Assembly: GCA_049965555.1 (NCBI GenBank)
Contig: JBMFWF010000012.1
Coordinates: 1-18,202, forward strand
Direction of reading: 5' to 3'
Length of the DNA stretch: 18,202 bases
DNA from: Candidatus Parvarchaeum sp.
GTDB lineage: Archaea > Nanobdellota > Nanobdellia > Parvarchaeales > Parvarchaeaceae
The stretch's first letter is position 1. Each line of letters opens with the position of its first letter. Of the stretch, positions 1 to 16,780 are shown one piece after another. The notes beneath the pieces were generated by a model. That model was not told where the DNA came from. It was given only the letters and a program-made list of their open reading frames with translations, and made no database searches. The translations under genes were made by a program, and so were the position numbers.

Positions 1-1
1 A

Positions 2-920: not shown

Positions 921-1073
921 TTCTTTTTATTGTAGCCGATTCATAAAAACTTTTTTTTCATAAAATTATTTCTAGAGATAAACTAATCCTGAAAGCAAGG
1001 AAGTGCTAAAAGCTAAGATTTTTAAAAGTTTAAATATTACTTATGTTCTATATAACGATAAAGGTGATAAAAT

Positions 1074-1109
1074 ATGTCAGAAGATGGCGGTAACACTGAA
1101 CATCCATGA
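1074..1109 (+). CDS. Candidate micro-ORF MSEDGGNTEHP (11 aa)
   Basis: BRE/TATA-like AAAAGTTTAAATA at about 1024-1036, SD GGTGA at 1063-1067, ATG 1074, TGA 1107-1109, T-rich tract from about 1131. Confidence 0.25.
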   Translation: MSEDGGNTEHP

Positions 1110-1199
1110 TTTGAGGGTGTTAGTGATCAATTGTTTTTGATTTGATTTTTTAGTTTTGTTTTGAAATTCTTATTATAGGAATTATTGATATTGGAGAAT

Positions 1200-1927
1200 C
1201 GATAAAAGTCAGTTTCCCTTTATGCTTTTTTAGGTTAATGGTGGCTATGGAAGATAAAGTAGGGAACGGATTTTTATTTGAGTTACTTTATTCTTAGATT
1301 CTTTGTTAAAAATCTTTTTTGGAAATCAAATATCATGGTCCAATTTTCCTCGGGGCCATCATTTCCATCACAGTTTGTAGCTAATTCTAAACAGTTAAAA
1401 AAATGTTTAAATCTAATTAGTGAAGCGAAGCTCTATATAGCTGATTAATATTCTAAGAAGGCTAACTTTAGATTTGTAATTTTTGGGATAGTGGAAAGTT
1501 TAAATAATGCAAATTAAGTTTCTTGAATTTTTCTAAAAGTTCTAAAACCTCTTTTTTGTCTATTACTTCTTTGATGATCCCGAATTTATTGGATGATAAT
1601 GAATTAAATACTCATGTTTCTGCGATTTATCTATTAAGGTAACTTTCCGATTGGTAGGATTCCCTTGTATAACGCTTTGTCCTTTGATAGGTTTTCGTTA
1701 TTAACTGCAAAAATAGAATTATATGGACTTTACCTATGATATCGCTTGTATTCTATAGTAGTGATATGTTTATATGCAAAATCGAAAAACCCAGAACCCT
1801 TGACTTGTATAAGTCTTCTATCTGTTGCATAAAGATTCTTATAACTTTGCAATATCTTTTCACCATCAAATAAATAGTTATTTACTACTAAATTTTTCTC
1901 TAAGTCACCACTTTTATTGTATTTCAT
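1200..1927 (-). pseudogene. Decayed gene remnants; the 5'-most piece (1730..1927) resembles a bacterial PH-domain-like N-terminus
   Basis: 65-aa ORF (YLFDGEKILQSYKNLYATDRRLIQVK...FAYKHITTIEY) is followed by short protein-like minus-strand fragments (e.g. IIKEVIDKKEVLELLEKFKKL; CLELATNCDGNDGPEENWTMIFDF) broken by stops, in very AT-rich DNA. Confidence 0.4.
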
Positions 1928-2038
1928 ATCTTACAGATTACTTCTCATAAAACTTATATTCTTTCCTTCTTTTATGGCTTTCTGCCTGATAACCTGTTTA
2001 GTTGCTGATTCCAAGTTTCCCTTCTTTAGTTAATATAA

Positions 2039-4024
2039 TTACCACATGTTTAGATTTGGATATTTAACTGGCAATTTTCCAAGCTTGCTCTTTTCTTTGA
2101 AGGTGCTTTCAAACTTTGGATGTGTAACCGCAGGAACTAAACCCCTTATCTTTTCGGGAGAATGCGGGTCTATCATAGCAAACATTTTTGCAGTTTCATC
2201 CCTTACATTGCTCTTCCATATCTGCGACCAAGCTATGAAAAACCTCTGCTCAGGAGTAAACCCGTCTATTTTCTTGTTTTCTGCGGGGTTTCTTTTAAGA
2301 TATCTCTGCAAAGCATCATATGCTATGCTTATCCCGCCAAGATCTGCAATGTTTTCACCCAAAGTGAGTTTCCCATTGACCTTTACTCCAGGTATTATTT
2401 CAAATTTGCTGTAGAAATCAGCTACTTTTTTAGCAAGAGCATTGAACTTCCTTGTATCTTGGGGAAGCCACCACTCCTTCATTCTACCATTTCCATCGTA
2501 CAATCTTCCTTGGTCATCGTAGCCATGCGTTATCTCATGGCCTATGACTCCGCCTATTCCGCCGTAATTCACAGCAGCATCCTTGCTGGCATCAAAGAAC
2601 GGAGGCTGAAGTATCCCCGCAGGAAACGCCAATTCATTCCCGCTGGGGTTATAATAAGCATTTACCATTGAAGGAGTCATCAGCCATTCCTTTTTATCGA
2701 CCTTTTTCCCTATTCTTTTTATCTGCCTGTTTATTTCAAATTTTATCGACCTTGTCACGTTCCCGAACAGATCGTTTCTTTCTATCTCTAATTTTGAATA
2801 GTCCCTGAACTTCTCAGGGTAGCCTATCTTAACGTTAAGCATGGAAAACTTCTTAAGAGCCTTCTTCCTTGTTGCTGGGCCCATCCATTTCACTGCTTTA
2901 AGCCTTTCAATGAATATGCTTTTAACATCACTTACAAGCTCCTCGGCCTTTCTCTTTGCCTCTCTGCTAAAGTTCTGCTCGACATAAAGCTTGCCCAGAG
3001 CTTCTCCTATCGAAAAATCTATTAACTTTATTGCTCTTTTCCACCTAGGCTCCTGCACTTTTTTGCCCATCAATTTTCTGCCAAAGAAATCGAAATGTTC
3101 TTTCTCAGCCTTTGAATGCAAAAGCGAAGCAGAATGGTTTATTATCTGCCATTTGAGGTATGCCTTAACATCATCGACTGTGAATTTTGCTCTTATCATG
3201 TTGACTTTGTCCAGGAATTCCGGCTGGCCCACCACCATAAATGATATTGGATTGCCTCCAAGTGAAGAGTATATTCCAAGTAAATCGATTGCATTGAACC
3301 TTTTCTTTATCTGTTCAATGCTAAACCTGTTGTAGTTCTTTATCTCATCTCTTAGCTCGACTGAACTGCGGCTTGCTTCTGCAAGGTAATTCTCTATTTT
3401 CATTATTGAATCGCAGTAATCTCTGGCTTTGCCGTCCTTCTCGCCATATAACTTAAACATCTTTACGATGTGATTCTTGAAGTCAGATACCGCCTTTGCG
3501 TGCTCCTTTTTCAAGTAGTAGTCCCTGTCCGGTAAAGAAATGCCTCCCTGCGTTATGTAAAATGAATAAATGCTGCTGTCCTTCTTGTCCTCTGCTGAAG
3601 ACAGATCAAAGAACGAAGATATCCCCTCTTTCATTAATTCTTTTATAACAGAGTTTACATCATCAAAATCCTTTATCGAATCGACGATCTTCATAAGCGG
3701 CATTATTGGTGAAAAGCCCTTCTTTTCTATGGTTTTTGTATCCATGAAAGAAAAGAAGAAATCGCCGACCTTTTGTTCTACCGTCCCTTTTTCCTGTTTA
3801 TTGTAAGCGCATGACTCGGCTATAGCTTTTAAAATCTCAAAGTTCTTGTTTGAAAGCTGTATAAAGGAATCGTACCTTCCCTCCTCCTTTGGTATCGGCG
3901 TGCTTGACCGCCACTTGCCGCAGGCATAATTGTAGAAATCCTCAAACGGGTCTATTGATAAGTCCATGTAAGAGGTTGAAAAACCTATGTTTTTCGCACT
4001 TTCCTTCCTTTCAGAGCTTTCCAT
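2039..4024 (-). CDS. pepO: M13 family zinc metalloendopeptidase (PepO/neprilysin-like), apparently cytoplasmic
   Basis: 661 aa with DFYNYACGKW, VNAYY, FPAGILQPPFF, NYGGIGGVIGHEITHGYDDQG (HExxH), GENIAD and DPHSP motifs. No signal peptide is evident. Confidence 0.95.
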   Translation of the reverse strand: MESSERKESAKNIGFSTSYMDLSIDPFEDFYNYACGKWRSSTPIPKEEGRYDSFIQLSNKNFEILKAIAESCAYNKQEKGTVEQKVGDFFFSFMDTKTIEKKGFSPIMPLMKIVDSIKDFDDVNSVIKELMKEGISSFFDLSSAEDKKDSSIYSFYITQGGISLPDRDYYLKKEHAKAVSDFKNHIVKMFKLYGEKDGKARDYCDSIMKIENYLAEASRSSVELRDEIKNYNRFSIEQIKKRFNAIDLLGIYSSLGGNPISFMVVGQPEFLDKVNMIRAKFTVDDVKAYLKWQIINHSASLLHSKAEKEHFDFFGRKLMGKKVQEPRWKRAIKLIDFSIGEALGKLYVEQNFSREAKRKAEELVSDVKSIFIERLKAVKWMGPATRKKALKKFSMLNVKIGYPEKFRDYSKLEIERNDLFGNVTRSIKFEINRQIKRIGKKVDKKEWLMTPSMVNAYYNPSGNELAFPAGILQPPFFDASKDAAVNYGGIGGVIGHEITHGYDDQGRLYDGNGRMKEWWLPQDTRKFNALAKKVADFYSKFEIIPGVKVNGKLTLGENIADLGGISIAYDALQRYLKRNPAENKKIDGFTPEQRFFIAWSQIWKSNVRDETAKMFAMIDPHSPEKIRGLVPAVTHPKFESTFKEKSKLGKLPVKYPNLNMW

Positions 4025-4044
4025 TTAAAAGCTAAGACGGCATT

Positions 4045-4542
4045 CTATTTATTATTAACATCCGTCCGGCCCTGTAAGTTCTTATAATTCCCTGACAGAT
4101 ATTGATTAATGGCGTATGCGAACTTACTAAGCTGCTTTGCACTCATTTTCTCCACTTCATAGCCGTTGAAAACTACTTTTTTAGTAGTGTAGTCTGCAAA
4201 TGCGATGTTTTTATATGAATTGCCTTCCCTCCTGGCAAAGAACATATAAATATTGGTTTTTCCACTGCTGTAATCCTTTCCATTTGAGAGGTAAACATTG
4301 TTTTCATCCTTGAAGAGCTTGCCGAAAAAGTTATCTTGTTCGATGCTGTCCCTTACTTCATACACTAAAAGCGTTTTTACTTCTTTGCTGTTTTTACTTT
4401 CTAGATTTACAGGAAAGGAGTTTGCTTTTATTTTCAATGGCATCCAGTTTTCGGCAGGCAAACTGCTGAAAGCTTCTTCCACTTTTTTATTCAAATTGCT
4501 GCTGCCTTCAAGCATTTCTTCCAAATCTCCGTATTTTTCCAT
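4045..4542 (-). CDS. Hypothetical protein
   Basis: 165-aa ORF preceded by SD-like AAGGTGG, co-oriented with and 20 nt upstream of the M13 peptidase. Confidence 0.7.
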   Translation of the reverse strand: MEKYGDLEEMLEGSSNLNKKVEEAFSSLPAENWMPLKIKANSFPVNLESKNSKEVKTLLVYEVRDSIEQDNFFGKLFKDENNVYLSNGKDYSSGKTNIYMFFARREGNSYKNIAFADYTTKKVVFNGYEVEKMSAKQLSKFAYAINQYLSGNYKNLQGRTDVNNK

Positions 4543-4798
4543 TTTTAACCACCTTTATTAACCGGAAGATCAATTCTATAAGCAATACGTTTGCAGCCAA
4601 AGACAAAAGGAAAAAAAGTACTCCTTGAAAAGTAAAAGAAAGCTGTTTGTCGGCAGAGCTTTCGAAAAGGCTAGCTAAAACAGTGCATATGAAAAGCTCG
4701 AGATTTATTGTCTCGAATCTTAAGTAGCTGAAAACCCTGTCTCCAGCCTTGTTTTCCACTTTACCTTTATTTCCAAACGTTGCTTCGAATTCTTCCAT
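4508..4798 (-). CDS. Small hypothetical membrane protein (2 TM)
   Basis: The likely start is ATG 4798 (MEEFEATFGNK..., 96 aa) rather than the listed 4897. Two hydrophobic segments (LELFICTVLASLF; GVLFFLLSLAANVLLIELIF). Confidence 0.55.
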   Translation of the reverse strand: MEEFEATFGNKGKVENKAGDRVFSYLRFETINLELFICTVLASLFESSADKQLSFTFQGVLFFLLSLAANVLLIELIFRLIKVVKNGKIRRFGRNA

Positions 4799-4861
4799 TT
4801 TTTTAGATTTTTTTGATAGATTATAGTAAAAACAAAAAAGTTTTATTTTATAGATTAAGCA

Positions 4862-5025
4862 GCCCAAACGTATGAAGTTGTTTTTATGAACCCGCAAGAC
4901 GTTTGGGCAGATTACCTTGTCTTGACAATGAGCTTATAGGCAGGGTGATTAAATGAATATGTCCATGAAAGCATATCTGCGAGTAAATCCTGCTTCACTT
5001 TACTCGCTGCATTCATGAGACTTTG
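4862..5025 (-). ncRNA. Candidate structured non-coding RNA (two long stem-loops), family unknown
   Basis: Perfect 10-bp inverted repeat GCCCAAACGT (4862-4871)/ACGTTTGGGC (4899-4908). Second long hairpin with CATGAA/TTCATG, GCA/TGC and perfect GCGAGTAAA/TTTACTCGC stems (about 4961-5021). A T-tract follows on the minus strand at about 4827-4839. Strand is inferred. Confidence 0.45.
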
Positions 5026-5053
5026 CATTATATGTTATGCTAGGAATTAGTAT

Positions 5054-5248
5054 GTGAACTACCCCAAGCTTCCGCATGGAGCTTCACGCTTCTTCGGAAA
5101 AGGTTGTTATCCTCTGCGTGCATACTGCCCGGTTCCCGAGCAACTATTTTATTCTCCTTCGGTCTTACATTGCACGAAGCTAATTTGTGCAAAAGAGCTT
5201 TCCCCTTTCGGGTAGGTGTAGCACTTTCAGCCTCCACCGAGACCTGCC
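5054..5248 (-). ncRNA. TnpB omegaRNA/reRNA-like scaffold, copy 1 (guide = flank ATACTAATTCCTAGCATAAC...)
   Basis: GCTCGG-GAA-CCGGGC hairpin, CACGC...GCGTG pairing in the context CACGCAGAG...GAAGAAGCGTGAAG, and the terminal RE hairpin plus TCAC. There is also a 5' multi-stem domain (GGTCT/AGACC, GGTG/CACC, CCC-GAAA-GGG, TTGCAC/GTGCAA). Confidence 0.6.
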
Positions 5249-5321
5249 TTTTACATATAATATCTGATTTTTCCTATATTTTTACTTTTCCTTACTGTCA
5301 GGGGAATTCTCTGCGGATTAG
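5054..5321 (-). mobile_element. Non-autonomous IS200/IS605-family derivative (PATE/MITE-like), copy 1, left end damaged
   Basis: The minus strand ends GAAG-CTCCATGC-GGAA-GCTTGGGG-TAGTTCAC, a subterminal hairpin plus TCAC typical of IS605/TnpB right ends. The left boundary abuts TTTAA. There is no TSD and no transposase or TnpB ORF. 5054-5290 matches 14266-14502 with one mismatch. Confidence 0.8.
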
Positions 5322-5331
5322 TTAAATCTAA

Positions 5332-6456
5332 TTATTTCTTTAGGCCAAAAAGCCCTTCTTTCAGCTTCAGCCCAAAACCGTGTCCTTTGCCTATTGTGTT
5401 TTTTCCTTTAATGGTCTTCAAGCCGCTGTAAACAAACCTGTTTTTATGCGTCAAGTGGGAGTCCAGATCAGAGAACCCTATGTCTTTTATAGAAAGCGCG
5501 AAATGCGTTCCTGCCGTTATGCCGACCCTGCTTTCCTCCATGCAGCCTACCATGATCCCTATGTTTTTTGACCTTGCTTCCTTCGCTATCTGCATGGCCT
5601 TTGTTATTCCCCCTGTTTTCATGAGCTTTATATTTACCATTGAAACCGCATTCATCCGCGCAAGTTTATTCAGGTCTTCGATTGTCTTCAATGACTCATC
5701 GGCCATTATCGGTACAGTGCTTTCTTCATTTAATTTTTTTAGAGAGTAAAGATCCGAGAATTTCACAGGCTGCTCCAGAAAACCCAGATTAAATTCCTTT
5801 GAATTTTCAAGGAAGAACTGTGCTTCTTGAAATGAATACCCCTGATTGGCGTCTGCGACTATTTTGATTGAATTGCCCACTGCCTCTCTTATCTTTTTTA
5901 TTCTTTTTAAGTCATTATCAACATCAAGGCCGACCTTGACCTTTATAACCTTAAATCCTTGTTTTTTATAGAATAAAGAATGCTTTACTGAAAGCTTTTC
6001 GCTTTCTATGCCTATCGTCATAGAAATCGGTTTTGCTTTTCCTTTTCCACCTAACAATGAAACCGCCTTTTTCCTTAAGATCTTTCCCACGAGATCATAT
6101 AAAGCCAGGTCTATCCCTGCCTTTGCGGTATTCTCTCCTTTTGACATTTCATCCAGTTCTCTGTTTATCCCTTTAAGGTCTAGAGCATCCTTTCCTTTCA
6201 ACTCCTCTGCAGCTCTTTCTATGAAGCTGGAAACTGAATAAGAGTCCTCATTGGTTACTTCTTTGTCCGGGGCTGCTTCACCGATCCCCTCGAACCCCTT
6301 TGCCTTTACACTTACGAAAACCGTTTTGCTTGATGAATAGGATTCATTTGCTATCCTCAATGGCTCGTTTAGAAGCAGATCCTCTACTTTAAATGTTATA
6401 TCATCTATCGGAAAAGCTGTTGTCTTACTAAGCTTTTGCATGCTAATTATTTGCAT
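5332..6456 (-). CDS. Dipeptide epimerase (L-Ala-D/L-Glu epimerase-like, enolase superfamily MLE subgroup)
   Basis: GIGEA, KAGIDLALYDL, KVK, DANQG, EQP, ADES, NIKLMKTGG, GCMEES and DLDS (DxD) motifs. Alternative start ATG at 6441. Confidence 0.9.
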   Translation of the reverse strand: MQIISMQKLSKTTAFPIDDITFKVEDLLLNEPLRIANESYSSSKTVFVSVKAKGFEGIGEAAPDKEVTNEDSYSVSSFIERAAEELKGKDALDLKGINRELDEMSKGENTAKAGIDLALYDLVGKILRKKAVSLLGGKGKAKPISMTIGIESEKLSVKHSLFYKKQGFKVIKVKVGLDVDNDLKRIKKIREAVGNSIKIVADANQGYSFQEAQFFLENSKEFNLGFLEQPVKFSDLYSLKKLNEESTVPIMADESLKTIEDLNKLARMNAVSMVNIKLMKTGGITKAMQIAKEARSKNIGIMVGCMEESRVGITAGTHFALSIKDIGFSDLDSHLTHKNRFVYSGLKTIKGKNTIGKGHGFGLKLKEGLFGLKK

Positions 6457-6500
6457 GCTATAAAGAAATATTTTTAAAAACCTGTTTTTATATAAGTAAA

Positions 6501-7214
6501 ATGTTGAAAAGAGAATTTTCCAGCTATCATGGAATATACAAGCAGGCCATAAAAGATTACAAGTGGCTTATAATCGCCGGCCTTGTTCTGTTTCTTCCAA
6601 GCATAATAATATACTCCATAAAACCCACTGCTTTACCTTACTGCCCTGTAGAACAGCTATGCTCTTCTTATTCAACGCCTTTGGGTGCATTCACTTCGAT
6701 CTTCATATATGATTCATGGACAAACATATTAGCATTTGTAGTTTTCTTTGTATTCCTGTGGGCCATAGAGATATTTGCAAGAGATTATGTAAGGCCCAGA
6801 AGAGCAAATTTCGCAGCTGTATTCATGTATGTTTCAGGGATATCTGCGAACTTGATAGAGATCGCATACAATCACAATATAATTTCATTCGGCCCTTCCG
6901 GTGTCGTCTATGCTTTCATAGGCATAATCGTTTCATTCAGCGTAATAAACATACTGCTGCCGAATTGGGAGCGCGGAAAGGACAGTATTACAAAAATAGA
7001 AGACAAGGGATACGTCCTTATTAACCTAATAGTTTTCGTGTTTTTCTTCCTCTGGATATTCTTTAGTCCAGGCAGCTTTATATCAAAGGCCCCGAATGTC
7101 AACTATGCAGTGCACGGAATAGCATTCACAATAGGGTTTGTAGGGACGTTTGTGAGAGCCATTATACTGCGGATAAGAGATATGCCAGAGCCAAAATACA
7201 TGCTTCGCAAGTAA
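6501..7214 (+). CDS. Rhomboid-family intramembrane serine protease
   Basis: About 6-7 TM segments. GPSGVVYA (GxSG catalytic Ser) and VNYAVHG (catalytic His). The TM2 HxxxN motif is degenerate. Confidence 0.8.
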   Translation: MLKREFSSYHGIYKQAIKDYKWLIIAGLVLFLPSIIIYSIKPTALPYCPVEQLCSSYSTPLGAFTSIFIYDSWTNILAFVVFFVFLWAIEIFARDYVRPRRANFAAVFMYVSGISANLIEIAYNHNIISFGPSGVVYAFIGIIVSFSVINILLPNWERGKDSITKIEDKGYVLINLIVFVFFFLWIFFSPGSFISKAPNVNYAVHGIAFTIGFVGTFVRAIILRIRDMPEPKYMLRK

Positions 7215-7279
7215 AGGCAGAGTAATACAAAGGTAATACAAATAAAAGGCATTTTAAAGACATATTTTCAATTAAAACT

Positions 7280-7636
7280 GTGGTAAAGGAGGGCTTGGCG
7301 CAAATAATAGAGTCTATTAAGAAAGACTCCTACGATTCTGTCATATTGGTTGAGGGAAAAAGGGACAAAGAGGCCCTTAAAAAAGCCGGGATACCTGGAT
7401 ATGCAATACTCCAGGTCTCTTACAAGGATGAGAATACAATATACAATGAATTGATTCTTTACCATAGAGATAAGATAATACCGCTTTACGATAACGACAG
7501 GACAGGGGAGAAAAAGCTTTCTAAGCTTAAGAACTTTCTTTGTGGAATGGGATTAAAACTTGTTGATTACAGAAGCTCCTTGAATGAAAACGGCATAACA
7601 TACATAGAAGAGATAGACAACAGGTTGGGCATCTGA
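7280..7636 (+). CDS. Small stand-alone Toprim-domain protein (RNase M5/primase-like)
   Basis: 118 aa, GTG start, ILVEGKRD and YDNDRTG (DxD) Toprim motifs. Confidence 0.85.
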   Translation: MVKEGLAQIIESIKKDSYDSVILVEGKRDKEALKKAGIPGYAILQVSYKDENTIYNELILYHRDKIIPLYDNDRTGEKKLSKLKNFLCGMGLKLVDYRSSLNENGITYIEEIDNRLGI

Positions 7637-7679
7637 ATTAATATATATACATTGCTTTTCTATACTTAAATAAAGATAT

Positions 7680-8696
7680 ATGAAATTTTATATTTCAATT
7701 GATTATTCCGACAGCGAAAGCAGGAAGGCACTGCCCTCACTCATAAGATTCATGAAGGAAAGAAAAGCAAAGTTCTCCATTGAAAAAAAGGAAAAGAAGG
7801 GCAAAGCTGAAGACCTCAAAGGATTTGACATGATAATAGCATTCGGCAGCAGCTTCAACGTACTAAGAACATTTAGACAAATGAAATCGGATATTCCTGT
7901 GCTGGGCGTTTCAATATATGAGAATGAGTTCCTTCCTGAAATAACACTAGAGGACTTCAAAAGGCTTTTCACAATAATAAACGACGGCAAGTACAGCATA
8001 GAAAAGAGGAACAGGCTGGAAGCATTTGTTGATGATAAACCGCTTCCGCCAGTATTGAATGAATTTGTTATAACTGCAAATAAGAGCGCATCAGTGATTT
8101 CATATTCATTGTATATTGACAAAAAGAAAATGTTCAATGATGAAGGGGACGGTATAATAGTGTCCACGCCTACTGGATCTACTGGCTACTCTTCCTCTTC
8201 TGGCGGGCCGGTAGTGCTGAATGATGCTGATATCATAGAATTAACGCCTTTATCCTCAATGCAGCAAAACAAGCCAATGATTGCAAACGGAAATTCATTA
8301 GTGACAATAGATAACCTGAATTCCAAGAGCGGGATAGATATCGTATCAGATGGGAGATTCCGCTACCAGTTCAGAGGTAAGAGGATAACCATAAGGAAAT
8401 ATGAACAGCCGGCCAATTTTATCACGATAAATGAAATAAAGAAAACACCGATAGAGAAGATGAAAAGCAGGGAATTAAGCATGCCTAAAATAGATGATGC
8501 CCCGCCTTCTGCTAAGTTCATACTCAAGCTTTTGCAGTATGAGGGGCCGTTGACACAGAAGGACATAATAAGCCTGTCAGCACTGCAGATAAGAACGGTT
8601 AGGCATGGCATCCTCTACCTTAAAAAGAAGGGCCTTATAGAGGAAAATAAGACGCTTAGAGATGCAAGGTTCAGCATTTACAGGCTCAAGAATTAA
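7680..8696 (+). CDS. NAD-kinase-fold protein with degenerate GGDG motif fused to a C-terminal winged HTH (putative regulator)
   Basis: Retains LNE and GDGIIVSTPTGSTGYSSSSGGP. IIAFGSSFNVL replaces IxxGGDGTxL. The C-terminus PPSAKFILKLLQYEGPLTQKDII...RTVRHGILYLKKKGLIEE...DARFSIYRL is a MarR/ArsR-like wHTH. Confidence 0.85.
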   Translation: MKFYISIDYSDSESRKALPSLIRFMKERKAKFSIEKKEKKGKAEDLKGFDMIIAFGSSFNVLRTFRQMKSDIPVLGVSIYENEFLPEITLEDFKRLFTIINDGKYSIEKRNRLEAFVDDKPLPPVLNEFVITANKSASVISYSLYIDKKKMFNDEGDGIIVSTPTGSTGYSSSSGGPVVLNDADIIELTPLSSMQQNKPMIANGNSLVTIDNLNSKSGIDIVSDGRFRYQFRGKRITIRKYEQPANFITINEIKKTPIEKMKSRELSMPKIDDAPPSAKFILKLLQYEGPLTQKDIISLSALQIRTVRHGILYLKKKGLIEENKTLRDARFSIYRLKN

Positions 8697-10107
8697 GTTT
8701 TTCCTCCATTATCCTGTTCCTTGCATCAAGTATGTCTTTTCCTATTCTAACAGGGAATGGTTCAAAGTCCTCCAATCGCCGATATCTTTCCTGCAAGGAT
8801 GAAAGCTGTCTTTTTGTGTATTCTTTTATTTCCTTTAACGATGGAAAATCGTAAACCAACTTTCCGCCTTCTATTGCCGGCACAAGAAGCTGCTGGTATC
8901 CTTTGTATTTATTGCTAGAAGGCCTGTCTATTATATCATCAAGCATGAATCCATCTTCAAACCTGCGGTATATTTGCTTGTTAAAAGGCAATGTCGTTTT
9001 ATCGCTGCTGCTTATCTTTATCTTTGGAATAAATGTTCCATTTTCCTCTTCTTCCACAAGCTTGTAAACTCCCCCCAAAGCAGATACGCCTCCTTTCTTT
9101 GAAATCGAATTATAGTTTGCCGCAGTGTCCAGCCTTGTCCCAACACCGTAAATGTCTATCGGAGCATTGTTCTTTACAAAGTAATCTATCTGGTATTCAT
9201 CCAGATCGCTGCTTGCTATTATCTTTGTGTTTGAAAAGCCGTTATCATCAAGTATCCTCCTTACCTGCCTGCTTAGTTGTAGCAGATCGCCGCCGTCTAT
9301 CCTGACGCCTTTTAAGTCGTATCCTCTCCTTCTGAGCTCATTCCCAACAATGCAGGCATTCTGTGCCCCTTTCAAAGTATCATATGTGTCTATGAGGAAA
9401 ACTGCGTCATTTGGAAACGATTCAGCGTATTCCCTAAAGGCCTCAAGTTCGCTTTCCCTTTCCTGAACGAACTTATGTGGCATAGTTCCTGAATATGGTA
9501 TACCAAGTTTCATTGCAGCAGATACCAATGCTGTCCCTGCCGCCCCTCCTATGTAAGAGGCCCTTGAACTTAAAATTGCCGCATCCCTTCCGTGTGCCCT
9601 TCTTGCGCCAAAATCAAGGAAGGCTTTGCCGTTTGAAGCGTATGCTATCCTGGCTGCCTTGGTCGCCACCATGGTTTGGAAGTTCATAACAGAAAGGATA
9701 TAAGTTTCAAATAGTTGCACTTCTATTGAATTGCCGGTCACAGTGATTATTGGCTCATTTGGAAACACGACAGTCCCTTCTGGCACTGCATTCACATTTC
9801 CTTTAAACTTAAAGTTCTGCAGGTAATCTAGAAAATCGTCTGTTAATGCGCCGTTTGAGCTTTCTTTCAGCCACTCTGCCTCTTCTTTGCTTAGCTTAAA
9901 GTTTTTTATGAAGCTGATTACCTGCTCTAAACCAGTAGCAACCATATAACCGCCCAGGTTTTCAGGTATGTTCCTGAAATAATACACCTCGGTTATCTTA
10001 TTGTTTCTCCCATGATCGAAGTTCGCCTGGCCGCTTGTAAGCTCGTAATAGTCAAGAAAAAGCGGCATTTCAGAGTCATTCATTAAAAGTGAATTCAGTT
10101 TTTCCAT
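8686..10107 (-). CDS. pncB: Nicotinate phosphoribosyltransferase
   Basis: LDYYELT, AVPEGTVVFPNEP, QLFET, DFGARRAHG, GTMPH, LIDTYD, GVRIDGGD, SSDLDE, YGVGT and GVYKL motifs. Confidence 0.95.
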   Translation of the reverse strand: MEKLNSLLMNDSEMPLFLDYYELTSGQANFDHGRNNKITEVYYFRNIPENLGGYMVATGLEQVISFIKNFKLSKEEAEWLKESSNGALTDDFLDYLQNFKFKGNVNAVPEGTVVFPNEPIITVTGNSIEVQLFETYILSVMNFQTMVATKAARIAYASNGKAFLDFGARRAHGRDAAILSSRASYIGGAAGTALVSAAMKLGIPYSGTMPHKFVQERESELEAFREYAESFPNDAVFLIDTYDTLKGAQNACIVGNELRRRGYDLKGVRIDGGDLLQLSRQVRRILDDNGFSNTKIIASSDLDEYQIDYFVKNNAPIDIYGVGTRLDTAANYNSISKKGGVSALGGVYKLVEEEENGTFIPKIKISSSDKTTLPFNKQIYRRFEDGFMLDDIIDRPSSNKYKGYQQLLVPAIEGGKLVYDFPSLKEIKEYTKRQLSSLQERYRRLEDFEPFPVRIGKDILDARNRIMEEKLNS

Positions 10108-10115
10108 AACTATAG

Positions 10116-10132
10116 AAGAAATGGCATTTCTT
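10116..10132. promoter_or_regulatory. Perfect 17-bp palindrome AAGAAATG-G-CATTTCTT, candidate operator in the pncB/pncA divergent promoter
   Basis: 8-bp arms with a 1-nt spacer, lying between a TATA-like TTAATA (minus strand, about 10137-10132) and the pncB ATG at 10107. A related half-site AAAAATGGCA occurs on the minus strand at 10180-10189. Confidence 0.55.
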
Positions 10133-10245
10133 ATTAAGGAATCTAAATGGGAAATTTTTGCAGCTTATTTTAGTCCATGTGCCATTTTTTCCCACACTAA
10201 ACATGATTTAAAGAATCGCTGACAAAGAGTTGAAAAGGAGGTAAT

Positions 10246-10863
10246 ATGGAAAAAGCTTTATTGCTGGTGGATTTGATAAAGGGCTTCGGCCAAGAGGGAT
10301 ACGACAAGAACATGTACTGCAGAAACGTGGAAAAAATAAAGGGAAGTCTACAGCAGCTTGTTGAGTATGCTAATAAAAACAACATACCTGTAATATACTG
10401 CTGTGATGCGCATGAAAACAATGACCCTGAACTGAAAAGAAACGGCGGGCCCTGGGAGGAGCACTGCATGAAAGGCACTGAAAGCAGTGACATTGTTGAT
10501 TGGCTCCCTTCTAAAAATTTATTGAAATTAACGAATACTGACGCAAAATATAAGATCATCGGCAAGGAAGCACAAAATAAAATGTACAGGATCGACAAGA
10601 GAACTTACAGCGGGTTCTACAATACAGTTCTTGATGAGCTGTTAAAAAATAACGGCATAAAGGAAGTTTACATTGCAGGACTTGTGACAAGCATATGCGT
10701 TCAGCATACAGCTGCTGATGCATTCTTCAGAGGCTACAAAATTAATATTGTTGAAAACGGATGCGCCGACACAAACAACGAAAAACATGAAAATGCCATA
10801 GAGTACATGAAAAACAACTATTCTGCTAAGATAGTTGAGATGGAGAAAACTGGTTTGAAATAA
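10246..10863 (+). CDS. pncA: Nicotinamidase / isochorismatase-family cysteine hydrolase
   Basis: LLLVD (catalytic Asp), DAH, WEEHC, DKRTYSGF (Lys) and GLVTSICVQHTAADA (catalytic Cys). SD AGGAGG upstream. Clustered with pncB and nadE. Confidence 0.9.
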   Translation: MEKALLLVDLIKGFGQEGYDKNMYCRNVEKIKGSLQQLVEYANKNNIPVIYCCDAHENNDPELKRNGGPWEEHCMKGTESSDIVDWLPSKNLLKLTNTDAKYKIIGKEAQNKMYRIDKRTYSGFYNTVLDELLKNNGIKEVYIAGLVTSICVQHTAADAFFRGYKINIVENGCADTNNEKHENAIEYMKNNYSAKIVEMEKTGLK

Positions 10864-10877
10864 CACTCTGTGTGTAT

Positions 10878-11705
10878 ATGGAAATTCCAAGCGAATTAAG
10901 GATAAATGAAAAAAGCGCAGTTGAGTACACCGTTAAATGGGTAAAGGATTACTTTAAACCACTTAAAACCAAAAAAGCTGTAATTGGGTTATCGGGCGGA
11001 GGTGATTCTACTTTTACAGCTTACGTCTGCAGAATAGCACTTGGAAAGGAAAATGTTCTTGGAGTGATAATGCCTTCTGATTCAAATCCAGAAGAGGATG
11101 AAAAAGATGCATATGCAGTTGCAAAGGCAATCGGGATTAGTGCAAAGACGATAGATATCTCACCGATAATGAAGGCAATAGAAAGGGAAAATCCTGAATT
11201 AAAGGAAGAAAAGAACAGGATTGCAAGGGCAAACATAAAGGCAAGGCTGAGGATGCTTCTTTTGTACAAGGAAGCAAATGAATCAAACGCTTTAGTTGCG
11301 GGAACTGACGACAGAAGTGAACATGCTTTAGGTTATTACACAAAATATGGGGATGGAGGAGTCGATATAAATGTGCCAGAGCATCTTTACAAGATGCAAG
11401 TTAGGCAGATACTTCTGTGGATAGGGGAAAATGAGAATATGGGCATATTTGAAAAGATAGCTGAGAAGGTGCCTTCTCCAAGGCTATGGAAGGGACAGAC
11501 AGCAGAAAACGAGCTTGACATCCATTACGAAGATATTGACAGAATACTTTATACCATGAACGAAAAGAAGATAAGGACTGCTGAGAGGATAGCAAATCAA
11601 ACCGGTATAAAAAAGAGTAAAGTAATGAAAGTCCTGAAAATGATGCAGAAAAATGCGCACAAAAACACCCTGCCGCCCTCTCCCCCTATAAGATATTTTA
11701 ACTAA
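10878..11705 (+). CDS. nadE: NH3-dependent NAD+ synthetase
   Basis: GLSGGGDS PP-loop, NIKARLRM, GYYTKYGDGGVD, LYKMQV and PSPRLWKGQTAENEL. No glutaminase domain. ATG 10878 is preferred over GTG 10872. Confidence 0.95.
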   Translation: MEIPSELRINEKSAVEYTVKWVKDYFKPLKTKKAVIGLSGGGDSTFTAYVCRIALGKENVLGVIMPSDSNPEEDEKDAYAVAKAIGISAKTIDISPIMKAIERENPELKEEKNRIARANIKARLRMLLLYKEANESNALVAGTDDRSEHALGYYTKYGDGGVDINVPEHLYKMQVRQILLWIGENENMGIFEKIAEKVPSPRLWKGQTAENELDIHYEDIDRILYTMNEKKIRTAERIANQTGIKKSKVMKVLKMMQKNAHKNTLPPSPPIRYFN

Positions 11706-11722
11706 AAGAGGCATTAATTGAA

Positions 11723-12481
11723 ATGAAAATAAAGATAATCTCAAAGAAAAATTACCCTGAGCTGAAGAAACTTTATAGAAGATTCGATATTTCAGATGAT
11801 GCAGGAGTGTGCATTGCCGTAGGCGGTGACGGTACTTTCATAAAGGCAGCAAATGAATTTGATGGGCCCATTCTGCCGGTAAGAAGCGATGAAAAGAACA
11901 GCACAGGGTATTATGCAGATGTTGGCCTTAAAGACATTGACTTTATAATTAAAAGCCTGCTGTCCAAAAATTATAAAGTAGAAGAAATTGGAAGAAAAAT
12001 AGAGGTTGGTTATGATAAAAGCAAGTATTACGGAGTGAATGAGATCCTTTTAAAGGACATACAGGAAGAGGTTTACTTTAAACTTTATTATGATGAAAAG
12101 GAAAAAAGAAACAGGCTTTATGAATACACTTTAAGCGGAGATGGCTTTTTGGTAACCAGCGCAATAGGTTCTACAGCATACAATAGAACTGCAGGTGGCC
12201 CAATAATACTGGATAAAGACGTGCTGTGCCTTACTTTTCTGTCGATAGAGAACCCGCTTACTAATTCTGTCATACTGAGAAAAGATGAAAAACTGCATGT
12301 TGAAATAGAGAAAGGGAGAGGAGTGCTCAGCTATGACGGCATAGTTATAAGCGAAGTCAGCCCGGGCAAATCCTTTGACATCAGGCTTTCAAACAAAAAG
12401 GTAAAAGTTTTGAAACTGAAAAACCATTATGAAGAGTTCTCTGAGAAGCTGTCTAGAATAATAAAAAGCAAGATGAACTGA
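11723..12481 (+). CDS. nadK: NAD(+)/NADH kinase (intact catalytic motif)
   Basis: IAVGGDGTFI, VNE, GDGFLVTSAIGSTAYNRTAGGP and YDG motifs. Lies downstream of nadE. Confidence 0.9.
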   Translation: MKIKIISKKNYPELKKLYRRFDISDDAGVCIAVGGDGTFIKAANEFDGPILPVRSDEKNSTGYYADVGLKDIDFIIKSLLSKNYKVEEIGRKIEVGYDKSKYYGVNEILLKDIQEEVYFKLYYDEKEKRNRLYEYTLSGDGFLVTSAIGSTAYNRTAGGPIILDKDVLCLTFLSIENPLTNSVILRKDEKLHVEIEKGRGVLSYDGIVISEVSPGKSFDIRLSNKKVKVLKLKNHYEEFSEKLSRIIKSKMN

Positions 12482-12535
12482 ACGTTAGGGTAGAAAAGCA
12501 AAAGATATTTAAGTTATTGTAGTTATCAAAAAACA

Positions 12536-12856
12536 ATGGCAAAGATGTTCTTTTTTGTTATAAGTGCAGACTCTGAAAAGATAAACATGGCCGTAGGCTT
12601 TGCTTCTAGAAGAAAAGAAAAAGGAGATGAAGTAAGGTTCCTTGTTTTCGGGCCGGCAGAAAACTTTATAGCAGAGCATGGAGAATTGATTGAAAACATA
12701 GACAAAGTTAAGGAAGCGATCAAGCCAAAGGCCTGTGTGTTCATAGCCCAGCAGAACAAACTTGAAGACAAGTTCAAGGGCCATTTGGAATTGTTGCCTG
12801 CCGGAGAATACATGTCAAAATCAATAGAAGAGGGCTTTTCAATTATAACTATCTAA
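12536..12856 (+). CDS. DsrE/DsrF-like small protein
   Basis: 106 aa with the pattern EVRFLVFGPAE...KACVFIA...AGEYMSKSIEEGFSIITI and a single Cys. Confidence 0.7.
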   Translation: MAKMFFFVISADSEKINMAVGFASRRKEKGDEVRFLVFGPAENFIAEHGELIENIDKVKEAIKPKACVFIAQQNKLEDKFKGHLELLPAGEYMSKSIEEGFSIITI

Positions 12857-12889
12857 ATAGGAATGATTTTAGTTTAGAGTAAACCTTAC

Positions 12890-14209
12890 TTACATCGATT
12901 TAACGGTCTTTTCGAGCCTATTCAATCCCTCTAGGATCTCGTCTTCCTTTATTGCAAGAGAAGGTCTAAATCTAATCCCTTTTTCTCCTGTCTTTAGGGC
13001 AAGCATACCATTCTCCCTGTAAAGCTTGTCTATGAACCTGTCTCTCTCTGCAGTGTCCTTCAAATCAAAGGCCACCATCAAGCCTCTGCCTCTCGCATTG
13101 TATATCTTATCGGGATATTTTTCTTGCAGATCCTGTATGCCTTTAAGAAGCTCTCTACCTCTTATTTCTGCGTTTTCTACCAAATTATCCTCTTTTATTA
13201 TTTCCAGATATCGCGTAGCTCTCACCATATCGGCAAGGTTTCCTCCCCATGTTGAATTTATCCTGCTGGGAACATGGAAGACATGCTCTTCGATGTCCTC
13301 TATCCTATCGCTTACCATTATACCGCAGACTTGCAGCTTCTTCCCAAACACAAGTATATCGGGATTGAAATCAAAATGCTGATATGCCCACCATTTGCCT
13401 GTAGCGCCCATGCCGGTCTGGACCTCGTCTACTATGAAAAGCATTTCATTTTCATCTGTGAATCTTCTAAGCCTCTGAAAATACTCTTTTCTAAAGTGAT
13501 TGTCTCCGCCCTCTGCCTGTATCGGTTCTATTATAAGGGCCGCTATATTGTCTTTGTCCTTCTTGACAGCTTCTTCTGCCTCTTCAAGGCTTTTGTTTTC
13601 AAGGTCTTCCACCTTCTTTAAGTTCTCTTCATTCAAAGGAAAAGTTATCTTTGGATTTGTAATTCTGGGCCAATTGAACTTGGGAAAGTACTTTATCTTG
13701 TTCGGATCAAAGGTGTTAGTAAGAGAAAGAGTATAACCTGATCTGCCATGAAAGGCCTCTTTAAGGTGCATTATTTTCTGTCCTTTCTCCTCCTTATGGC
13801 CATTCATAAAGTTCTTCCTTACCTTCCAATCTATTGCGGTTTTAAGCGCATTTTCAACTGCTAATGCGCCGCCTTCAATAAAGAAGTAATGCTTCATGTG
13901 AGTAGGCGCGGCTATCCTATCCAAAGCGTCTACAAACTCTGCCATTTCGACAGTATAAACGTCGCTGTTTGTTGGCTTGTTTATCGCTGCCCTCTGCAGC
14001 TTCTTCAAAAATGATGGCTCAAACATCTTGTCATGGTTCATCCCGATTGTAGAAGTTGCGAAGAAACCAAAAAAGTCCAATAGTTTTTTATCATGCAAAG
14101 AATCGTAAAGCCATGATCCCTTTGATTTTTCCAGATCGAGAACGAAATCATAGCCGTCTGCAAGGATGTGCCTGCCTAGTATAGAATGCACATCTTCTGG
14201 CTTTATCAT
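12890..14209 (-). CDS. lat: L-lysine 6-aminotransferase (class III PLP aminotransferase)
   Basis: HILADG, LDFFGFFA, EGGALAVENALK, FHGRSGYTLSLTNT, EPIQAEGGD, DEVQTG, FGKK.QVCG and RINSTWGG motifs. Confidence 0.92.
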   Translation of the reverse strand: MIKPEDVHSILGRHILADGYDFVLDLEKSKGSWLYDSLHDKKLLDFFGFFATSTIGMNHDKMFEPSFLKKLQRAAINKPTNSDVYTVEMAEFVDALDRIAAPTHMKHYFFIEGGALAVENALKTAIDWKVRKNFMNGHKEEKGQKIMHLKEAFHGRSGYTLSLTNTFDPNKIKYFPKFNWPRITNPKITFPLNEENLKKVEDLENKSLEEAEEAVKKDKDNIAALIIEPIQAEGGDNHFRKEYFQRLRRFTDENEMLFIVDEVQTGMGATGKWWAYQHFDFNPDILVFGKKLQVCGIMVSDRIEDIEEHVFHVPSRINSTWGGNLADMVRATRYLEIIKEDNLVENAEIRGRELLKGIQDLQEKYPDKIYNARGRGLMVAFDLKDTAERDRFIDKLYRENGMLALKTGEKGIRFRPSLAIKEDEILEGLNRLEKTVKSM

Positions 14210-14265
14210 GATATTTATATGCGCTATTAAGATTTAATAATTACATTTTTGCTTTTACAAGATAT

Positions 14266-14460
14266 GTGAACTACCCCAAGCTTCCGCATGGAGCTTCACG
14301 CTTCTTCGGAAAAGGTTGTTATCCTCTGCGTGCATACTGCCCGGTTCCCGAGCAACTATTTTATTCTCCTTCGGTCTTACATTGCACGAAGCTAATTTGT
14401 GCAAAAGAGCTTTCCCCTTTCGGGTAGGTGTAGCACTTTCAGCCTCCACCGAGACCTGCC
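14266..14460 (-). ncRNA. TnpB omegaRNA/reRNA-like scaffold, copy 2 (guide = flank ATATCTTGTAAAAGCAAAAA...)
   Basis: Identical to 5054-5248 with the same hairpins and a different 3' flank. Confidence 0.6.
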
Positions 14461-14553
14461 TTTTACATATAATATCTGATTTTTCCCATATTTTTACTTT
14501 TCTTACCGCCCTTCATCCCACATCTTACGAAAGGAGACTTTTTGGTGGATTAT
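14266..14553 (-). mobile_element. Non-autonomous IS200/IS605-family derivative, copy 2, with imperfect left-end hairpin
   Basis: Same right end ...GGGGTAGTTCAC. The left end (minus strand) reads TTTAA|ATAATCCACCAA-AAAG-TCTCCTTTC-GTAA-GATGTGGGA-TGAAGGGCGG, with the hairpin at 14516-14537. It is a direct repeat of copy 1 at an offset of 9212 nt. Confidence 0.82.
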
Positions 14554-14579
14554 TTAAATCGATTTAATCTAATATTCTA

Positions 14580-15071
14580 ATGAGTTGTATAAGCTTAAAT
14601 AAAATCTTGGAGATAGCCTCCGAAGAACAGAAAGAAGAGATAGAGACAAACAAAGAGCTGAAAAGGAAGGTTAACTTTCTTGCGGATAAGAAAACAGGAT
14701 TAAAGGATATATACAAAAGACTAATTTACAGGGAAAAGGAAAAGCACTACATAGAACTCGATGAAAAGCAGTTTGACAGGTATGAAACGCTGAAAGGCAT
14801 TGTTAAAAACACTCTGGAAGCGGGGATTGCAGGCACGATGACAGGCACCCTGTTATACACATACCTTGGAAGCTCTCTACAGCCTTCTGTCTATATTTCA
14901 GTTTTCTTGTCGTCTGCTTCTCTCTATGGCGTTTCCGCATTCATCTACAAAAGAATAGAAAAAACCTTTGGAAAAGAACTTGCAAGAAAGGGGAGAAACC
15001 TAATAGAGGCATTAAATGACCTTTATCTGATAAAATCAAAGGAATACAAAAATGCATTTTATCCAAGATAA
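14580..15071 (+). CDS. Hypothetical membrane-associated protein (2 TM hairpin)
   Basis: 163 aa with a charged N-terminus and two hydrophobic segments. TATA-like TTTAAATC at about 14553-14560. Confidence 0.7.
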   Translation: MSCISLNKILEIASEEQKEEIETNKELKRKVNFLADKKTGLKDIYKRLIYREKEKHYIELDEKQFDRYETLKGIVKNTLEAGIAGTMTGTLLYTYLGSSLQPSVYISVFLSSASLYGVSAFIYKRIEKTFGKELARKGRNLIEALNDLYLIKSKEYKNAFYPR

Positions 15072-15074
15072 CTA

Positions 15075-15953: not shown

Positions 15954-15991
15954 CAAAAAGTTTTTAATACTCCTGCATCTTATATAATAAA

Positions 15992-16689: not shown

Positions 16690-16780
16690 TTAGAGTATAA
16701 TGCTTTTTAAGCTATATATTAAATTATTTTAACTAAAAACAAACTTTATTAAAATGTCTGCTATAAGCTTATTAATAAAA

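Follow-up and report, generated by a model that had tools for sequence, protein, structure and literature searches.

To our knowledge, the described transcriptional regulators of NAD metabolism (NadR, NiaR and NrtR) are all bacterial. The Nudix domain of NrtR is often catalytically inactive, and its effector is ADP-ribose. According to its description, NrtR joins an enzyme-fold effector domain to a winged helix-turn-helix (wHTH) at its C terminus, controls genes of NAD synthesis and salvage, and is annotated as an enzyme (PMC2330246). For archaea, the RbkR report describes a riboflavin kinase with an N-terminal MarR-type wHTH, which retains kinase activity, acts through palindromic operators on biosynthesis genes of the same cofactor, occurs in several archaeal phyla and, in that account, never co-occurs with the plain kinase; NadR and BirA are named there as further enzyme–regulator fusions (PMC5397151). 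Here, an 18,202-nucleotide stretch of a Candidatus Parvarchaeum genome (contig JBMFWF010000012.1, positions 1 to 18,202; hereafter the window) was analyzed. One of its genes (7680–8696) encodes an NAD kinase (NADK)-like protein with a C-terminal wHTH (the fusion), set beside genes of NAD salvage. We put the probability that this gene encodes a DNA-binding transcription factor for NAD genes at roughly 0.75, judging from sequence, predicted structure and comparative genomics. The finding is real, its reading as a regulator is supported, and it generalizes to a family-level hypothesis with an explicit operator.

The window protein would resemble NrtR as an enzyme fold turned sensor, placed on a wHTH over NAD genes, and was found by the same comparative-genomics logic. 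NrtR differs in its Nudix sensor, its bacterial distribution and its unrelated operator, whereas the window protein has the NADK fold and no Nudix domain. Unlike RbkR as reported, the fusion carries its wHTH at the C terminus, the catalytic motif is degenerate in most of the family, and a canonical second kinase is usually present as well. Because its effector fold is that of NADK, the window protein belongs to neither the NrtR nor the RbkR group. NadR, NiaR and BirA are like the proposed system in exerting end-product or precursor control over cofactor genes, but their folds are unrelated (nicotinamide mononucleotide adenylyltransferase (NMNAT)/ribosylnicotinamide kinase (RNK), 3H and biotin ligase, respectively), and none of these was found by Pfam in the window protein. 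A Pfam search at E ≤ 0.01 returned only the two NADK domains and no Nudix, NMNAT/RNK or 3H effector domain. Canonical NADKs (Archaeoglobus fulgidus, 1SUW/1Z0S; Pseudomonas aeruginosa, 7QVS) share the two-domain fold and the NE and glycine-rich motifs, with Foldseek E values of 2e-25 to 4e-22 and profile E values of 1.7e-43 to 1.4e-41; they lack the wHTH and keep GGDG intact, whereas the window protein has the wHTH and reads GSSF. A full-text literature search, which reached neither subscription-only papers nor databases of the RegPrecise type, turned up no NADK–wHTH regulator and no transcription factor for archaeal NAD biosynthesis. The family is most likely undescribed so far, with a prior description possible.

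Fold and motifs of the fusion protein

Translation of the open reading frame (ORF) gave a protein of 338 amino acids, and the ORF was judged real. Residues 1–255 form the NADK fold. Pfam assigned NAD_kinase_C (E 1.9e-19, residues 126–248) and NAD_kinase (E 3e-7, residues 17–105), both above gathering thresholds, and the AlphaFold2 (AF2) model of the whole protein had a predicted local distance difference test score (pLDDT) of 86.3, the linker accounting for the lowest blocks (pLDDT 59–75). NADKs of known structure led the Foldseek matches of this model (7qvs, E 2.1e-25). The protein was also matched by each of the 18 NCBIfam NADK models, always far below the curated cut-off (best 129.9 bits against 326). 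A profile search found no PDB chain spanning both the NADK body and the wHTH. Structure prediction, which the sequence-only reading had put forward as a check, thus returned both an NADK fold and a wHTH.

Alignment placed G56-S57-S58-F59-N60 on the G-G-D-G-T of the second kinase encoded in the same locus (NADK2), so that neither the motif Asp nor the Thr after it is present, and no acidic residue remains in the motif. The Asp of GGDG is needed for NAD kinase catalysis, and the Thr that follows it also has a catalytic role. Since both are missing, the window protein is probably a pseudoenzyme that has lost kinase activity, which is less certain than its role as a regulator. At the same motif position, G[SN]S[FS] occurs in 10 of 10 rows of the close congener group. 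The NAD-site motifs are kept: N127-E128 lies within LNEFVIT, and residues 162–179 (STPTGSTGYSSSSGGPVV) hold TPTGSTGY followed by GGP. N127 is invariant in 29 of 29 alignment rows, as are G166, S167, T168 and Y170. These alignments bear out what had been read from the letters alone, namely that GSSF stands in place of GGDG (by alignment with NADK2) and that the NE and TPTGSTGY..GGP motifs (N127-E128 and residues 163–170) are retained. The protein lacks the GGDG that defines NAD kinases and scores under the curated cut-offs, and so should not be filed as one, though it is derived from one.

Folded in isolation, the C-terminal domain adopted an H-H-H-strand-strand arrangement with a two-stranded wing (pLDDT 91.4). 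It superposed on MarR-family DNA-binding domains, several of them solved with DNA, with a query-normalized TM-score (TMq) of 0.85–0.91 and a root mean square deviation of 1.1–1.8 Å; the wHTH cores of MarR, MepR, MftR and BpsR were among these matches. Among ten aligned C termini, TrmB matched nine and MarR eight (best MarR E 3.9e-8). Target-normalized TM-scores (TMt) of 0.32–0.57 show partial coverage of the MarR targets, with only 66 amino acids after the linker against the ~140 amino acids of MarR proteins, whose dimer interface is built from N- and C-terminal helices that are missing here. Given this length, the partial target coverage and a sub-threshold Pfam MarR match, the C terminus is a MarR-like wHTH module and not a MarR-family protein. 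The fused C-terminal wHTH claimed earlier is therefore upheld by predicted fold and by superposition, and is weak by sequence.

Within the genus, identity to the window protein was 94–61% for the wHTH, 91–46% for the C-domain and 87–32% for the N-domain. Among the domains, conservation is thus highest in the wHTH and lowest in the N-domain that bears GGDG, the linker being the least conserved segment. P276, S277, A278, R305, T306, R308, D328 and R330 were invariant in 28 of 28 rows, and the third helix of the wHTH was nearly invariant across phyla.

Candidate operators at pncB, pncA and nadA

The 3′ end of the fusion gene overlaps the convergent pncB by 11 nt; pncA, nadE and NADK2 come next, the last starting 3027 nt past the fusion end. 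This agrees with the earlier statements that the gene abuts a pncB/pncA/nadE/nadK cluster and that an intact GGDGT kinase lies about 3 kb away. The pncA-like protein scored 61.6 bits on the NCBIfam nicotinamidase model, below the cut-off of 174. Its gene is probably co-transcribed with nadE. Across the 783,591-bp genome (92% complete), the fusion and NADK2 were the only PF20143 matches, and NADK models scored the fusion higher than NADK2. No nadA was found in the source genome, which fits a salvage-only regulon.

The region between the divergent pncB and pncA genes (10108–10245), which the sequence-only reading had named for binding experiments, proved to hold a conserved, genome-unique pair of inverted arms. 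The arms are 17 nt each with centers 32 bp apart (Table 1), and both are kept in 10 of 10 aligned congeners while the sequence between and around them varies. Each lies just upstream of a conserved block. The block on the pncB side we take to be a TATA box on the basis of general archaeal promoter architecture, and its distance from the ATG implies a leaderless pncB mRNA. A near-perfect palindrome, GAAATGGCATTTC, at 10118–10130 (11–23 nt upstream of the pncB ATG) was considered and rejected as an operator, being unconserved in the nine congeners aligned.

A position weight matrix (PWM) was built from the 20 arms of ten congeners and scanned over the genome. Among hits scoring at least 13.4, only the two arms were intergenic; all others lay inside ORFs, at counts like those of shuffled sequences. 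At a score of at least 16 there were six hits, two of them training sites, and three shuffles gave 1, 3 and 5 by a slightly narrower count. Because the genome holds no other strong intergenic match, the arm element is not a general promoter feature. As the matrix was trained on the window arms, the informative results are those on untrained sequences. In four untrained loci (L182–L185, one from another family) the best match in 6.6–8 kb (12.5–19.8) fell in the pncB|pncA spacer in all four; these spacers total 1291 nt, in which about 0.06 hits of at least 12 would be expected from the genome-wide rate (38 per 783,591 bp). The sole congener with pncB-pncA-nadE and without the fusion (G032) has a 35-nt spacer and no element, and the PWM matched no intergenic sequence around pncB in L191 and L192, which come from two fusion-less genomes of other families.

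In other phyla, a palindrome, GGCAA-N3/4-TTGCC, was found in the spacer shared by the fusion and nadA in Thorarchaeota (L093, L004) and Baldrarchaeota (L098, L094), and also 5′ of the fusion in L090 and 5′ of a nadA-nadC-aspartate dehydrogenase (aspDH) operon in L138. Its forms are GGCAAATTTTGCC in L093 and L138, GGCAACATTTGCC in L004 and GGCAAAAATTTCC in L098 and L094, and the L098 palindrome scored 20.3 on the window arm matrix. Where it precedes the fusion (L004, L090, L093, L094, L098), the site lies 47–134 nt upstream of the start. The 55 fusion loci together (637,166 nt) held 55 sites at no more than one mismatch, against a shuffle mean of 24 and maximum of 33.

At genome scale, Nitrosopumilus sp. 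b1 (G001, 1.8 Mb) had a single perfect site, located in the 91-nt aspDH|nadA spacer, and none for a reversed-pattern control; at one mismatch it had 65 sites against 10 for the control, too many to interpret. Four further Nitrosopumilaceae (G066, G069, G070, G067) each had a perfect site 76–90 nt upstream of nadA; leaving out G067, which is flagged as unpublished, the count is four of four. Their other perfect sites lay inside ORFs, except one in G069, whose neighbors are unannotated. A thermoplasmatote (G002) had two perfect sites, one of which, GCGGCAAATCTTGCCGC, precedes the nadA ATG by ~80–96 nt and the nadA TATA box CCTTATATCC by ~50 nt; Baldrarchaeum (G003) carries GGAAAAAATTGCC upstream of nadA. 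Apart from the fusion|nadA site, the perfect sites of G003, G004 and G005 fell within ORFs according to a simple ORF caller, whose calls are soft in GC-rich genomes. The N3 core varies among genomes and the arms of the palindrome are kept. By resemblance, and by continuity through L182–L185, L098 and G003, the window arms appear to be degenerate copies of this family-wide operator.

A second conserved intergenic site, GGCAAACTTTGCC, was seen in Nitrosotalea-like genomes, upstream of a 470-aa ORF without a Pfam family: at 1501–1513 of L208 (G069) and, in L122 (from the genome flagged as unpublished), L130, L134 and L136, ~7.75 kb downstream of the fusion. It may mark a further member of the regulon.

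Whether the palindrome occurs where the fusion does was examined in an even sample of 61 genomes from G001's phylum (Thermoproteota), 30 of which returned a nadA locus. The fusion was scored present when a frame of 300 aa or more matched the wHTH profile at E ≤ 1e-13, and the best palindrome match within 300 nt upstream of nadA was recorded. With the fusion present (n = 16), mismatches numbered zero in ten loci, one in four, three in one and four in one, that is, at most one mismatch in 14 of 16; with the fusion absent (n = 12) they numbered two in four, three in six and four in two, giving 0 of 12. Two ambiguous cases with short wHTH frames had one and three mismatches (1 of 2). Most sites of the fusion-bearing genomes lay 76–123 nt upstream of nadA, and the rest of these loci held ~10 sites at no more than one mismatch in ~105 kb. 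A replicate on 61 genomes of the phylum of G002 (Thermoplasmatota), with a 400-nt window, found a site at no more than one mismatch in 6 of 11 genomes with a strong fusion match, 1 of 27 without a fusion and 0 of 2 with a weak wHTH match. Both phyla point the same way; no p-value is given, since related genomes are not independent.

Table 1. Features of the fusion locus and the evidence for them (window coordinates)
Feature	Position	Strand	Evidence or remark
Toprim-domain protein, 118 aa	7280–7636	+	Pfam Toprim_4 E 5e-6; match under NCBIfam cut-offs to a PRK04017-like "hypothetical protein"
NADK–wHTH fusion gene, candidate regulator	7680..8696	+	ORF, Pfam, AF2 model, Foldseek
G56-S57-S58-F59 codons, in place of GGDG	7845..7856	+	Alignment with NADK2 and family
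N127-E128, NE motif of NADK C-terminal domain	8058..8063	+	Alignments
T163–Y170, TPTGSTGY glycine-rich NAD-site motif	8166..8189	+	Alignments
Flexible linker, ~residues 256–272	8445..8495	+	Low pLDDT, low conservation
MarR-like wHTH, residues 273–338 (66 aa)	8496..8693	+	Isolated-domain fold, superposition, alignments
Presumed recognition helix, residues 304–316	8589–8627	+	R305, T306 and R308 invariant
pncB, nicotinate phosphoribosyltransferase, predicted target	8686..10107	-	NCBIfam NF006695, 479.6 bits (cut-off 469)
Putative pncB TATA box, CTTAATAA on minus strand	10131..10138	-	Conserved block; ~27 nt from ATG
Arm 1, ATGGGAAATTTTTGCAG	10147..10163	+	8 nt upstream of putative pncB TATA; PWM 24.6, genome rank 1
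Arm 2, GTGGGAAAAAATGGCAC on minus strand	10179..10195	-	10 nt upstream of putative pncA TATA; PWM 20.0, rank 2
Putative pncA TATA box, ATTTAAAGAAT	10206..10216	+	Conserved block; assignment inferred
Shine-Dalgarno GGAGGT of pncA	10237–10242		
pncA-like nicotinamidase (isochorismatase family), predicted target	10246..10863	+	Pfam Isochorismatase E 2.2e-35
nadE, NAD synthase	10872..11705	+	NCBIfam NF010587, 272 bits (cut-off 255)
NADK2, presumably active NAD kinase	11723..12481	+	252 aa; GGDGT-bearing, AVGGDGTF

In 9 of the 12 congeners fetched (L173–L180) the Toprim gene stands directly 5′ of the fusion, and in the fusion-less genome G016 it adjoins NADK2. In the window, the 43 nt that separate it from the fusion (7637–7679) hold a TATA-like run and, between it and the ATG, the block TTGCTTTTCTATAC, conserved in close congeners, which could be the promoter of the fusion itself, an initiator or an autoregulatory site. 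The remaining genes of the window encode a queuosine salvage protein (2–574, +, truncated at the window start), an M13 peptidase (2039–4024, -), an enolase-superfamily MR/MLE enzyme (5332–6456, -), a weakly matched rhomboid-like membrane protein (6501–7214, +), a class-III aminotransferase (12890–14209, -), an aldo/keto reductase (15075–15953, +) and a Ser/Thr/Asn-rich protein of at least 467 aa (16781–18202, -; weak DUF2341 match, E 3.8e-6) that runs to the window end and is possibly a surface protein.

Distribution of the family and decay of the kinase motif

A search of 60 relatives with the fusion, pncB and PF20143 covered 33 genomes of the genus, the source genome (G000) included. Fusion and pncB occurred together in 15 of the 33 and were both missing from 14. 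The fusion alone was seen in two (G018, cut at a contig end, and G035), both copies being truncated, and pncB alone in two (G032, and G015 with a 55-aa fragment at a contig end). The order toprim-fusion>, <pncB, pncA>, nadE>, NADK2> was kept in 12 of 12 fetched congeners (NADK2 lying past the fetched end in L183), and G053, from another family, has the same cluster in a variant order. In G016 (L187) the fusion, pncB and pncA are lost, the Toprim gene and NADK2 are kept, and a nadE fragment (2046–2336) lies between them; in G035 (L190, 4224–4856) the fusion is truncated after residue 194 and the NAD gene cluster is gone. The G035 remnant and the G016 nadE fragment are natural decay products. 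NADK2 is kept without the fusion in G015, G016, G023 and G032, of which G016 and G023 lack pncB too. Since the fusion co-occurs with pncB and NADK2 persists without both, it is NADK2 that behaves as the housekeeping kinase, with the fusion as an accessory to pncB/pncA.

PF20143 matches were absent from 12 of the 33 genus genomes, some of them ~90% complete (G007, G019, G026), and from 26 of 28 same-family and same-class genomes beyond the genus, and these DPANN archaea may not make NADP themselves. L192 (G042, another family of the class) carries pncB, pncA and a 274-aa NADK2-like ORF in the same direction without a fusion; this kinase was missed by PF20143, whose tallies may therefore miss divergent NADK2-type kinases.

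Beyond the genus, a protein search with the fusion gave 1450 matches at E ≤ 0.001 among 4498 candidates. The best 120 of these were mostly 320–350 aa long, came from Parvarchaeota and Thermoplasmatota and, where named at all, were called "NAD kinase". A search for loci with the alignment of the whole protein followed the generic TPTGSTAY pattern and brought up chiefly ordinary NADKs of bacteria, with fusions only in L003 and L004; a scan keyed on the wHTH alone gave 60 loci, and thus 62 with these two. An NADK–wHTH ORF was present in 55 of the 62, in at least nine lineages (Nanoarchaeota/Parvarchaeota, Thermoplasmatota, Thorarchaeota, Baldrarchaeota, Micrarchaeota, Iainarchaeota, Nanohaloarchaeota, Thermoprotei and Nitrosopumilaceae), with one further fusion in a metagenome-assembled genome labelled Methanosarcinales. 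ESM-Atlas clusters of NADK_C plus HTH_24 proteins were 100% archaeal, and a metagenome scan with P0001 gave no confirmed relative. The window protein fits the proposed family, defined by an NADK-like body, a C-terminal PPSAKF...RTVR...RDAR wHTH and a length of ~330–350 aa. The remaining seven loci are haloarchaeal (L105, L107, L112, L121, L140–L142) and encode stand-alone wHTH proteins of 83–130 aa, which share a PPSAK...RTVR...DARQ signature without the NADK part; neither the palindrome nor an NADK was seen near these genes in the seven loci.

NAD genes neighbor the fusion in distant lineages. A divergent nadA is found in Thorarchaeota (L093, L004) and Baldrarchaeota (L098), and a divergent nadA-nadC-aspDH operon in L138. 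Iainarchaeota (L106, L108) have nadC-nadE on one side and an NMNAT-like gene and nadB on the other, and in L099 an NMNAT-like gene adjoins the fusion with pncB-pncA-nadE-NADK 3.5 kb off. The fusion is divergent from or directly 5′ of nadA in nine further genomes (G076, G092, G100, G108, G124, G153, G167, G173, G179). No flanking NAD genes were found in the Nitrosopumilaceae, Thermoplasmatota and Micrarchaeota loci examined, nor in L095 and L102.

The kinase motif was tallied in 171 fusion proteins, a biased sample made up of protein-search matches and loci. GGDG was intact in 11; 28 read GGDx, 53 GxD/E and 49 G[DE]x, and 30 had no acid at positions 2–3. NE or ND was present in all 171, N127 being kept throughout, and the glycine-rich motif was nearly invariant. 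In a rough FastTree phylogeny, with its root uncertain on account of a long outgroup branch, GGDG-intact members were scattered (five changes, at least four of them forced). The acid at motif position 3 was gone in 15 of 15 rows of the Parvarchaeales clade (support 100), one of which read GDSF. PF20143 matched two proteins in Nitrosopumilus G001 (the fusion and a 278-aa frame), three in Thermoplasmatota G002, two in Baldrarchaeum G003 and three in Thorarchaeota G005; in Micrarchaeota G004 the fusion, with GGDGT, was the sole match. The homolog survey that the sequence-only reading had called for thus found GGDG loss with the NAD-site motifs kept, and linkage to pncB, pncA and nadE here and to nadA, nadC, nadE, nadB or an NMNAT-like gene elsewhere. 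Two corrections follow: the fusion is found well beyond this organism, and GGDGT survives in some members, which are probably bifunctional. The simplest history we infer is that of an ancestrally bifunctional kinase and regulator, with decay of the kinase motif in the presence of another kinase.

Competing readings, proposed mechanism and significance

The best-surviving alternative is that the window protein is itself bifunctional, that is, a regulator that is still an active NAD kinase despite GSSF, through other residues or polyphosphate chemistry, in the manner of RbkR, BirA and NadR. Purifying selection extends over the whole NADK fold (the N-domain is 74–87% identical among close congeners), the fusion outscores NADK2 on NADK models, and the GGDGT-intact members, with that of Micrarchaeota G004 as the only PF20143 match of its genome, make ancestral bifunctionality probable. 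For the window protein, however, the reading is unlikely: a motif without any acid has also lost the Thr, the position 3 acid is lacking throughout the Parvarchaeales rows, the Asp is required for catalysis, and the locus also encodes a GGDGT kinase, which persists in genomes that have lost the fusion.

Still less probable is a regulator that senses something other than NAD(P) (ATP, polyphosphate, nicotinic acid adenine dinucleotide, nicotinamide mononucleotide or ADP-ribose), or that has no ligand and uses the NADK fold only as an oligomerization scaffold. Known NAD regulators do sense varied molecules (NiaR niacin, NrtR ADP-ribose, NadR both NAD and ATP), but in the 171 fusion proteins the motifs that line the NAD site of solved NADKs are invariant or nearly so while the ATP-side motif decays, as expected if NAD(P) binding is what is selected. 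Least likely of all is a plain divergent NADK paralogue, with a wHTH serving oligomerization or RNA or protein binding and the arms and palindromes bound by another factor: the database names of the family are all "NAD kinase", NAD-pathway enzymes often cluster and the HTH matches of the window protein are sub-threshold, but its wHTH is the most conserved part, has a third helix nearly invariant across phyla and superposes on DNA-bound MarR domains, and the palindrome both tracks the fusion (14/16 against 0/12 and 6/11 against 1/27) and sits in spacers shared with the fusion gene.

Several points weigh against a transcription factor for NAD genes. By sequence, the window wHTH stays below threshold in Pfam (E ~0.006–0.05; HTH_24 0.006–0.012, MarR 0.012–0.025). 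Relative to the ideal palindrome the arms have two to three mismatches and a 4-nt spacer, and a position upstream of TATA is not the classic one for an archaeal repressor. No arm-like element was found by the arm matrix 5′ of the fusion gene in the window, TTGCTTTTCTATAC not being matched, and neither the arm matrix nor the palindrome gave a site in the Micrarchaeota loci or in L097, L099, L106 and L108. Upstream of nadA, 2 of 16 and 5 of 11 fusion-bearing genomes lacked a near-perfect site, and 1 of 27 fusion-less genomes had one. NAD kinases belong to the NAD pathway, so that clustering with NAD genes could by itself be expected of a plain enzyme too. As the fusion adjoins pncB, their joint loss may be a single deletion, and the counts, taken from kin genomes, overstate independence and reflect few independent events. 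DNA binding, the ligand and the lack of catalysis are each inferred here from sequence and models.

If the window protein is a transcription factor for NAD genes, its NADK fold would act as a ligand-sensing and oligomerizing body tethered to the MarR-like winged helix. The retained NAD pocket would bind a pyridine dinucleotide, with catalysis left to NADK2. NADKs form dimers and tetramers; if the fusion oligomerizes likewise, each wHTH pair could read one palindrome, and a dimer of dimers could span the two degenerate palindromes 32 bp apart, just upstream of the divergent TATA boxes. The protein would thus bind both inverted arms between the pncB and pncA-nadE(-NADK2) promoters, occupancy of the NAD pocket would change its affinity for DNA, and transcription of the NAD salvage and amidation genes would be coupled to the NAD(P) pool. 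NAD+ is our first guess for the ligand. End-product (NAD+) co-repression is favored by analogy with NadR, NiaR, NrtR, BirA and RbkR; a site upstream of TATA would equally suit an activator released at high NAD. The earlier proposal of an NADK fold repurposed as an NAD/NADP sensor controlling salvage is in this respect supported by comparative genomics, the ligand and the kinase loss being its conjectural parts.

Taken together, and with somewhat less confidence than the regulator role of the window gene, we favor a broader account. NADK–wHTH proteins would be the long-missing master NAD regulators of Archaea, ancestrally bifunctional and reading GGCAA-N3-TTGCC; they would control nadA, for de novo synthesis, or pncB/pncA, for salvage, from Thermoplasmatota to ammonia-oxidizing Nitrosopumilaceae and DPANN; and they would have turned repeatedly into pure pseudoenzyme sensors once catalysis had passed to a second kinase, here acting as a dimer of dimers that bridges operators 32 bp apart.

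If this is true, hundreds to thousands of archaeal genes annotated as "NAD kinase" would be regulators or enzyme–regulators, and metabolic reconstructions that take motif-dead fusions as the NADP-forming step would be wrong. The hypothesis is testable, since a concrete operator and target promoters are given, including that of nadA in the cultivable Nitrosopumilus. The family would also offer a natural series from enzyme to sensor (GGDG, GGDR, GDD, GDN, GSSF), useful for the study of pseudoenzyme evolution and for NAD(P) biosensors.

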